64,000 nt of DNA from Carcharhinus longimanus. Taxonomy: Eukaryota. The position numbers were made by a program, and so were the translations under genes. Under the pieces are notes generated by a model. That model was not told where the DNA came from. It worked only from the letters and a program-made list of their open reading frames with translations, and ran no database searches. This document shows, one piece after another, positions 13,400 to 13,800 of the stretch. Within the stretch, counting starts at the first letter, position 1. Each line of letters starts with the position of its first letter. The DNA is taken from contig JASCQW010000162.1 of the NCBI GenBank assembly GCA_030264375.1, positions 77,269,764 through 77,333,763 on the forward strand, in the 5' to 3' direction.

Positions 13400-13800
13400 G
13401 CTGAAAATAATGCAAAAGGCCATTGGCCAATTGCTGGGGAAGACCTGTTATAGAGGAATCCACCTGACTGATTAATCGATGGGTCAAAAAGCCAAGAGAT
13501 TTAGTCTGATATCCTGGATTAACAGTTAGGGTAATATGCGGTGAAACCAACCCGGATTGATGCTATAAATAGAGCCAAACATGAGTAAGGAAGACTGTGC
13601 CCTCCTTTCCCTCAATAAACTCTGTTACAGTAATAGGTACGCAAGAATCAACATATGGGGCATTGATAGCGGCGAGTTCGATCAATGTACCCGTAGGGTC
13701 ATAAAACAAGGTAGCATGTGGCTGGGGAACATGTAAATAGCGTGAAAAATCTTGAAAGGATAAATCTGCTGACCACCATTGAGGAGAATGGTGGACCCAA
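13400..13800 (-). pseudogene. 2H-phosphoesterase (CNPase/2',5'-PDE-like) domain between protease and RT
   Basis: Single frame with one stop: ...LHVPQPHATLFYDP...LYL*HQSGLVSPHITLTVNPGYQTKSLG; HxT motifs at 13707-13721 and 13527-13541, 60 codons apart. Confidence 0.75.

Follow-up and report, generated by a model that had tools for sequence, protein, structure and literature searches.

A very probable CNPase-like 2H phosphoesterase domain between protease and reverse transcriptase of an endogenous retrovirus of Carcharhinus longimanus, and its relatives in other fish retroviruses

The stretch of Carcharhinus longimanus DNA described here, 64,000 nucleotides in length (GenBank assembly GCA_030264375.1, contig JASCQW010000162.1, positions 77,269,764 to 77,333,763 of the forward strand), is referred to in full as the window, and carries on its minus strand a decayed provirus in which an additional coding segment lies between the protease and the reverse transcriptase (RT) of Pol. 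We are highly confident that this segment is a CNPase-like 2H phosphoesterase domain belonging to a family carried by fish retroviruses. The identification as a 2H domain is made because the motifs are conserved, because there are sub-threshold matches to Pfam families of the 2H clan and profile matches to goldfish RICH and to an exon of the host CNPase gene, and because the predicted fold of a relative matches that of CNPase. The 2H phosphoesterase reading originally made from the letters of the window alone (the sequence-only reading) is thus upheld by several kinds of comparison.

RESULTS

Reading frame and motif pair

Translation of the minus strand places VPQPHATLFYD and SPHITLTVNPGYQTKSLG in a single frame of 169 codons at 13302-13808 (P0002), which continues into the frame of the RT N terminus at 13298. 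The segment PHATLFYD is followed 60 codons on by PHITLTVNPGYQTKSLG, and the sole stop between them is a TAG at 13563-13565. The catalytic-type residues of the first motif are encoded at 13716-13718 (His31) and 13710-13712 (Thr33) and those of the second at 13536-13538 (His91) and 13530-13532 (Thr93), the spacing from His31 to His91 being exactly 60 codons. Both motifs have the form H-x-T/S followed by a hydrophobic residue (HATL and HITL), and the two HxT motifs in one frame, 60 codons apart with one internal stop, are just as the sequence-only reading described them. The features of the domain are as follows.

13335..13808, minus strand: CNPase-like 2H phosphoesterase domain (very probable), about 158 codons, between protease and RT (translation, paralogue alignment of residues 1-158, alignment A3, and BLASTP to the walleye virus Env tail discussed below)
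13707..13718, minus strand: motif 1, H-A-T-L, with His31 and Thr33 (translation and paralogues)
13527..13538, minus strand: motif 2, H-I-T-L, with His91 and Thr93 (translation and paralogues)
13563..13565, minus strand: in-frame TAG inside the domain, codon 82 (translation)

The protease open reading frame (ORF) ends in NLAG*DLL, and the match to the RT of murine leukaemia virus (MLV) starts at residue 193 of P0001, at about window position 13230. A gap of about 500 bp had been claimed between protease and RT; the gap is present, and our estimate for the window provirus, about 550-650 bp, is larger. A bare pair of HxT motifs is weak evidence, and its significance comes from conservation and homology. 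The six-frame translation of the window, 127,996 residues in all, contains 63 instances of the motif H-[AVILCM]-[TS]-[LIVMF], and four same-frame pairs lie 50-100 residues apart, of which only the pair in the domain has no more than one stop between its members.

Distribution among fish retroviral Pol proteins

The proposed location between protease and RT can be seen directly in nearly intact relatives. In L023 (protein P0004) the protease, the domain and RT follow one another in a single frame with one TGA, and no interruption is present anywhere from protease to RT in the skate protein P0005 or in the fragment P0079. The protease tail beside the domain aligns with MLV-type protease tails, and the RT N terminus ('VWA...VGLT...PL.I....LPSI.QYPL') directly adjoins the end of the domain. 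The insertion is reflected in the distance from GRDLL to the RT motif PCQSP, which is 234 residues in P0004 as against 115-122 in gamma-like endogenous retroviruses (ERVs) without the domain.

A hidden Markov model (HMM) profile built from the copies in this genome alone (A1) matches 34 of the 71 Pol proteins that were retrieved with P0004, and always between protease and RT. The E values range from 1e-38 to 1e-13 for Pol proteins of other fishes, and from 1e-15 to 5e-4 for the protease-RT region of ray-finned-fish Pol; the hosts comprise a skate, catsharks and many ray-finned fishes. When A1 was compared with 1.84 billion representative proteins, 74 matched at E <= 1e-3 and 10 at E <= 1e-10. 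A Pfam scan of 72 of these 74, omitting two proteins that had already been examined, gave retroviral domain contexts only, with RVP before the match and RVT_1 after it. Both His residues are kept in the aligned Pol rows wherever the region is covered, and in alignment A3, which has 25 rows with 15-35% identity to the first, the invariant positions are His40 and Thr42 of the first motif, the second His (His100), and Leu114. Neither tetrapod gamma-like ERVs nor the walleye virus Pol (P0010, P0012) have such a domain between protease and RT, and in these Pol proteins RT begins about 45 residues after the protease. A search for homologues of the domain among longer proteins with the intact L016 found none, the word index used being too coarse for a domain that evolves this fast.

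In a quick tree of RT sequences the 30 ray-finned-fish proteins that bear the domain form one clade (Shimodaira-Hasegawa-like approximate likelihood ratio test, SH-aLRT, 86), and the cartilaginous-fish group forms another (SH-aLRT 100). The tree holds 68 of the 71 proteins, three having been dropped for RT matches shorter than 200 residues, and its deep forks are not settled. The presence of the domain needs three changes on this tree, of which at least two are forced, and it cannot decide between a single acquisition followed by relocation and several captures.

Three proteins in this set depart from the usual organization. The predicted protein P0007 (Scyliorhinus canicula LOC119973770) joins the Gag capsid straight to RT, skipping both the protease and the 2H domain, and represents either a copy with an internal deletion or an artefact of gene prediction; its 'no domain' label in the RT tree stems from this gene model. 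In the predicted protein P0082, of 892 aa, the C-terminal half of the domain and RT are fused to an array of C2H2 zinc fingers, reflecting either a chimeric gene model or a fusion formed in the host. P0008, a Thunnus albacares protein that stands for a cluster of 58, carries between protease and RT a divergent form of the domain, which keeps the first motif as CHCTAAF and has Tyr for the second His in FPYITVAV; judging from these residues, its lineage is possibly inactive or repurposed.

Homology to the Env tail of the walleye viruses

In a library of predicted viral structures the domain finds as its top match the Env polyprotein from walleye epidermal hyperplasia virus 1 (WEHV-1; Q9WHI8, E 1.7e-7), and Env of walleye dermal sarcoma virus (WDSV; A4GTG3) is matched at 1.8e-4. 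The A1 profile also reaches P0140, a protein of 1317 residues, over residues 1197-1282 (E 6.5e-4), and a cluster look-up gives this protein as WEHV-1 Env. There the domain (residues ~1150-1317) belongs to the cytoplasmic tail, past the membrane anchor, and carries the motifs IHPHVTLAYG ... IPHISIAIAEGHEQKELG. An hhalign comparison of A3 with the WEHV-1 Env tail has a probability of 98.3 and E 2e-14 over 83 columns that include both HxT motifs, and BLASTP of the window domain itself against WEHV-1 Env gives 30% identity over 82 residues at E 5e-5. These alignments show that the Pol-borne domain is homologous to the WEHV Env cytoplasmic tail, and it is therefore a module that is carried in Pol by some fish retroviruses and in Env by others. 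The two arrangements are distinct: the walleye viruses have the domain after the Env membrane anchor and none between protease and RT of Pol, whereas the provirus in the window has it in Pol together with an Env of the gamma type. Whether within Pol or within the Env tail, the domain would point to the particle interior and to the cytoplasm.

The class of domain was known already, and that in the window is a further member from cartilaginous fish. The sequence-only reading had said as much, with the class placed in fish retroviral pol genes, and passages of two articles bear on this. One attributes CNPase ORFs in epsilon-like ERVs of ray-finned fish to Basta 2009, J Virol 83:10152 (PMC4977317), and the other attributes a 2H domain in WDSV to Mazumder 2002 (PMC9503650, section 3.4.5). 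The prior claim accordingly holds for the class itself, although the WDSV and WEHV domain is placed here in the Env tail and not in Pol. The domain of the WEHV and WDSV Env tails is very probably that 'WDSV 2H domain', and a passage of a further article describes the walleye virus Env as a later development (PMC9967133). The CNPase ERVs of ray-finned fish have a domain of the same family, with the motifs PHVTLFYD and APH[IV][TS]LA...A[KR]xLGPMV common to both, but a 'YWG...W.PWI' segment at the N terminus is present in the ray-finned-fish domain and lacking in that of cartilaginous fish, and the structural model has a beta hairpin there. Where a passage of PMC4977317 tells of 'additional open reading frames', the domain lies in frame inside Pol both here and in the teleost Pol proteins examined. 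The words CNPase and phosphodiesterase are absent, by text search, from a paper on shark ERVs (PMC4422223) and from one on zebrafish ERVs (PMC8672886). The most useful by-product of the present analysis is the explicit homology of the Pol-borne domain to the walleye Env tail.

Sequence profiles and predicted fold

The sequence evidence, though weak, is consistent. Within alignment A4, of 55 members, the Pfam families matched by more than one member are, apart from RVP (two members), 2_5_RNA_ligase2 (five members, best E 0.0099), CNPase (two, 0.011) and LigT_PEase (two, 0.1), all three of which we take to belong to the 2H clan. In the PDB the A3 profile matches one sequence alone, goldfish RICH (2i3e, E 0.24), with the first motif aligned and the second as a separate stretch; a phmmer search of the PDB gives only RT. 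Against the last exon of the host CNPase gene (the gene lies at G000:C154:13072148-13075263) hhalign places PHVTL of A3 on SHITL at E 2.8e-4. A Tyr five positions past the first His is at least 90% conserved in A3 and aligns with a Phe of RICH; the aromatic residue at this position presumably corresponds to Phe235 of mouse CNPase, which would stack on the base.

Two structural models were made, one of L016 with 15 sequences from this genome (model 1), and one of residues 78-236 of P0079 with the 55-row alignment (model 2). The 2H superfamily has a duplicated alpha+beta fold in which each HxT sits on a beta strand that faces a central cleft. Model 2 has a predicted local distance difference test score (pLDDT) of 93.7 and a predicted template-modelling score (pTM) of 0.82, and its HxT motifs lie in beta strands at 27-34 and 88-93, each followed by a helix. 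Foldseek, the check on a predicted model that the sequence-only reading had named, returned 46 PDB matches to model 2 at E <= 1e-3 (best 5.6e-5, TMq 0.63), the ones listed being CNPase from mouse, human and rat, RICH from goldfish and a single fungal Trl1 entry (6u05, with the title RNA kinase).

Comparison of model 2 with 48,161 representative chains by VIA-align gave CNPase (2xmi) at Z 13.9 over 139 residues with a root-mean-square deviation of 4.6, and this was the sole chain with Z >= 8. Other chains, at Z 5.0-7.1, include drCPDase, rotavirus VP3, ThpR, LigT, Usb1, a phage phosphodiesterase, Acb1, plant CPDase, NS2 of mouse hepatitis virus (MHV), AKAP18, a poxvirus cGAMP (cyclic GMP-AMP) phosphodiesterase and ASCC1. 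Assigned to families from entry titles and recall, 14 of the 15 chains with Z >= 5 are titled as phosphoesterases or ligases of the 2H type, the exception being a topoisomerase III entry. The modelling is strong evidence, for a relative of the window copy, of a fold that resembles CNPase in particular.

Vertebrate CNPase and fish RICH (2xmi, 1woj, 2i3e; PF05881) are thus the best fold match, with both HxT motifs and the aromatic residue aligned, although identity is only about 12-16%, the retroviral domain has about 155 residues as against about 210 in CNPase, and it is embedded in a viral polyprotein. Cellular CNPase has an N-terminal kinase-like domain and a C-terminal membrane anchor. Both are absent from the retroviral version, which has protease and RT as its immediate neighbours. 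With an identity of about 15% to the host exon, a recent capture of the host CNPase gene is rejected.

Copies in the same genome and selection

A search of the 2.68 Gb genome gave 27 matches to the domain, representing 19 distinct loci with that of the window included, at 31-64% identity. Among the 18 other loci the first His (His31) is kept in 15, and the second (His91) in all 16 that cover it, so that the motifs, whose conservation in paralogous proviruses the sequence-only reading had made a test of its proposal, are indeed retained. The first Thr is present in 14 of the 18, with Ser in two more, and the second Thr in 14 of 16; Leu34 is kept in 18/18 and Gly106, fifteen residues past the second His, in 16/16. 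Most of the remaining positions vary freely across the genome copies. Loss or change of the first motif is seen in L002, where Arg replaces His, in L006, where the motif is scrambled, in L012, with Tyr instead of His, and in L014, with Ala instead of Thr; L013 has a broken second motif.

Ratios of non-synonymous to synonymous divergence (dN/dS) by the method of Nei and Gojobori (NG86) are 0.37-1.65 for close pairs (dS 0.12-0.3) and 0.08-0.4 among the distant pairs listed, where dS is at least 1 and saturated, and the values are indicative only. Purifying selection, for which the sequence-only reading had suggested looking, is favoured by the distant pairs in an indicative way. The pattern as a whole is what would be expected if purifying selection acted while the virus was active and the copies left in the host genome then decayed neutrally.

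Setting and decay of the provirus

The remaining features of the provirus in the window, all on the minus strand, are listed below.

16454..17711, minus strand: 5' long terminal repeat (LTR) of the provirus
14184..14660, minus strand: C-terminal part of Gag with a CCHC zinc knuckle (Pfam zf-CCHC, E 1.2e-4)
13879..14151, minus strand: retroviral aspartyl protease (Pfam gag-asp_proteas, E 8e-7), with a TGA within the NLAG*DLL motif; the frame runs on to about 13809
13808..13822, minus strand: frameshift zone between the protease frame and the domain frame (from comparison with the unbroken junction of L023)
12555..13384, minus strand: RT in several frames (MLV RT, E 5e-8; RVT_1, E 7.8e-8), with N-terminal pieces at 13223-13384 and 13032-13298
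11477..12301, minus strand: RT connection and RNase H (RNase_H, E 2.3e-14)
10759..11064, minus strand: integrase core (rve, E 5.3e-11)
9021..9596, minus strand: Env transmembrane subunit, gamma-type (TLV_coat, E 1.5e-8)
8492..8870, minus strand: 3' LTR remnant (two stretches match the 5' LTR, one of 274 bp at 88% identity and one of 74 bp at 90.5%)

The domain is separated from the RT core by at least two further frameshifts, at about 13230-13350. The copy in the window is dead, with the TAG in the domain, frameshifts on both sides of it, the TGA in the protease and LTRs that are about 10-12% apart. The 3' LTR looks truncated, in that about 380 bp match the 5' LTR and the counterpart of 16454-17122 was not found downstream of env. 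An extra LTR copy with a leader of about 80 bp is present at 19461-20487, with about 80-88% identity to 15969-17529, and runs of N at about 19352-19455 and 20487-20777 interrupt it; it could stem from a second provirus that has been truncated, from a tandem arrangement or from an artefact of the assembly. A repeat of about 50-60 bp inside the LTR (17192-17252) recurs on the opposite strand at 63-125, 23255-23312 and 40671-40718, with 78-88% identity.

DISCUSSION

The explanation that we consider best overall, and hold at a little better than even, is that the segment between protease and RT is a 2H domain of CNPase-like fold that was packaged with Gag-Pro-Pol and served to open cyclic phosphates. 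In the once-active virus the domain likely entered particles as part of Gag-Pro-Pol, and would there most likely have converted 2',3'-cyclic phosphates, at RNA ends or on nucleotides, to 2'-phosphates, its two His residues catalysing and its Thr residues holding the phosphate. In 2H enzymes generally, the two His provide general acid-base catalysis at the phosphodiester while the phosphate is held by the Thr or Ser residues, and CNPase is an enzyme that opens 2',3'-cyclic phosphates to 2'-phosphates.

For the specific activity, that of a 2',3'-cyclic phosphodiesterase, we would give about an even chance. It is chosen because the CNPase-like fold fits twice as well as the others, because the neighbours in the viral library bear RNA-ligase names (apart from the walleye Env proteins they are giant-virus proteins named RNA ligase), and because the aromatic residue past the first His is like that of CNPase and RICH. 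Three functions had been suggested in the sequence-only reading, namely degradation of 2',5'-oligoadenylate (2-5A), degradation of cyclic dinucleotides, and healing of 2',3'-cyclic phosphate ends on the primer tRNA, and among these the evidence favours the cyclic-phosphate option over 2-5A.

Several observations weigh against this reading, in part or as a whole. As regards the identity of the domain, none of the matches to 2_5_RNA_ligase2, CNPase and LigT_PEase reaches its Pfam cut-off across A4, the best score for CNPase (PF05881) being 15.7 bits (E 0.011) against a cut-off of 25 bits, and a Pfam scan of the window domain with the start of RT returns no family at all. With the host CNPase exon, hhalign reaches a probability of no more than 41%. 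Model 1 has a pLDDT of 65.3, and its top Foldseek rows, while all CNPase, include none at E <= 1e-3; P0079, on which model 2 is based, is only 29% identical to the window domain, although at this identity the predicted 2H fold carries over to the window copy by homology. As regards function, the P0008 lineage has Tyr for the second His, searches of the literature found no retroviral 2H domain whose function had been assayed, and a shared fold leaves the substrate open, similar 2H cores being able to cleave 2-5A, cGAMP or RNA ends.

Against cyclic-phosphate opening stands first the proposal that the domain is a 2',5'-phosphodiesterase, destroying 2-5A and so blocking the host OAS-RNase L pathway in the manner of NS2, VP3 and AKAP7, which we regard as unlikely. 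The host does have OAS genes, OAS1_C being found above its cut-off at two places (G000:C133:33505289-33534442 and C43:46843258-46855341, best E 6.1e-27), and a passage of PMC10400998 reports the OAS-RNase L pathway to be functional in a cartilaginous fish. The check on OAS and RNase L that the sequence-only reading had proposed is thus answered positively for OAS, whereas for RNase L there are only two loci with a KEN domain (Ribonuc_2-5A; G000:C128:21045327-21048100 and C137:4978510-4978674), and these could be both of the IRE1 genes. MHV NS2 (4z5v), rotavirus VP3 (4rpt, 6o3v) and AKAP7/AKAP18 (2vfk) belong to the same superfamily with the same two-HxT plan, NS2 and VP3 are virus-borne as is the retroviral domain, and these 2-5A-cleaving enzymes of RNA viruses are among the structural matches at Z 5.7-6.8. 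The fit to CNPase is nevertheless twice that to VP3, NS2 and AKAP18 (Z 13.9 versus 5.0-6.8), no search gave a sequence match to the NS2/VP3/AKAP7 group, and coronavirus ORF4b ranks only 27th in the viral library (E 6.8e-2). Both catalytic motifs are, moreover, kept in the 30 ray-finned-fish Pol proteins of one clade, and ray-finned fishes are reported to have lost OAS and RNase L (PMC10400998); the 2-5A proposal is weakened because the domain is conserved in viruses of hosts that are reported to be without this pathway, though for the present host, with its OAS genes, it keeps some probability.

To the same low degree we credit the proposal that the domain degrades cyclic dinucleotide or oligonucleotide messengers such as 2'3'-cGAMP, and so blunts the sensing of reverse-transcribed DNA by cGAS-STING, in the manner of phage Acb1 and of a poxvirus 2H cGAMP phosphodiesterase. 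In Pol or in an Env tail the domain would sit inside the particle and reach the cytoplasm at entry, and Acb1 (7t27, Z 5.8; E 2.5e-2 in the viral library) and the penguinpox cGAMP phosphodiesterase (9bkq, Z 5.1) are compact virus-encoded 2H enzymes of similar size to the domain. Both matches are far weaker than that to CNPase, however, and the searches give no link to either protein at the level of sequence, so that the poxvirus precedent is not matched by any specific pointer in the present data.

It is quite improbable that the domain has no catalytic role and is just a spacer, or an extension at the N terminus of RT, in which a 2H-like shape has been retained. The 58-sequence cluster of P0008 with its substituted His would be consistent with such a role, as would the failure of any Pfam family to pass its cut-off, but conservation is highest at the two His and the first Thr, which are invariant in 25 sequences of 15-35% identity to the first row, and His91 is kept in 16/16 of the decaying paralogues. 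That the HxT pair arose by chance in meaningless intergenic sequence, as the four same-frame pairs in the six frames of the window might suggest, deserves hardly any credence and was rejected in view of the Pol homology (E 1e-38 to 1e-13), the 74 matches among 1.84 billion proteins, the confident fold prediction and the structural match to CNPase.

Returning to the CNPase-like 2H domain, a broader and rather doubtful proposal, to which we would give slightly more weight than to either of the immune-evasion readings taken singly, is that it is a mobile module of the particle interior, kept since before the split of sharks and bony fishes and moved between Pol and the Env tail, and that at entry it destroys cGAMP, 2-5A or a 2',3'-cyclic nucleotide serving as an immune signal. 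If true, this would be the first retroviral enzyme aimed at second-messenger immunity. The walleye viruses are exogenous, and their Env-tail domain offers a natural, expressible protein for assays.

The enzymes that retroviruses are usually taken to carry are only protease, RT/RNase H and integrase, and sometimes dUTPase. A fifth conserved enzyme domain in the retroviruses of cartilaginous and ray-finned fishes, apparently under purifying selection in the viral phase, would imply a recurring need in these hosts.

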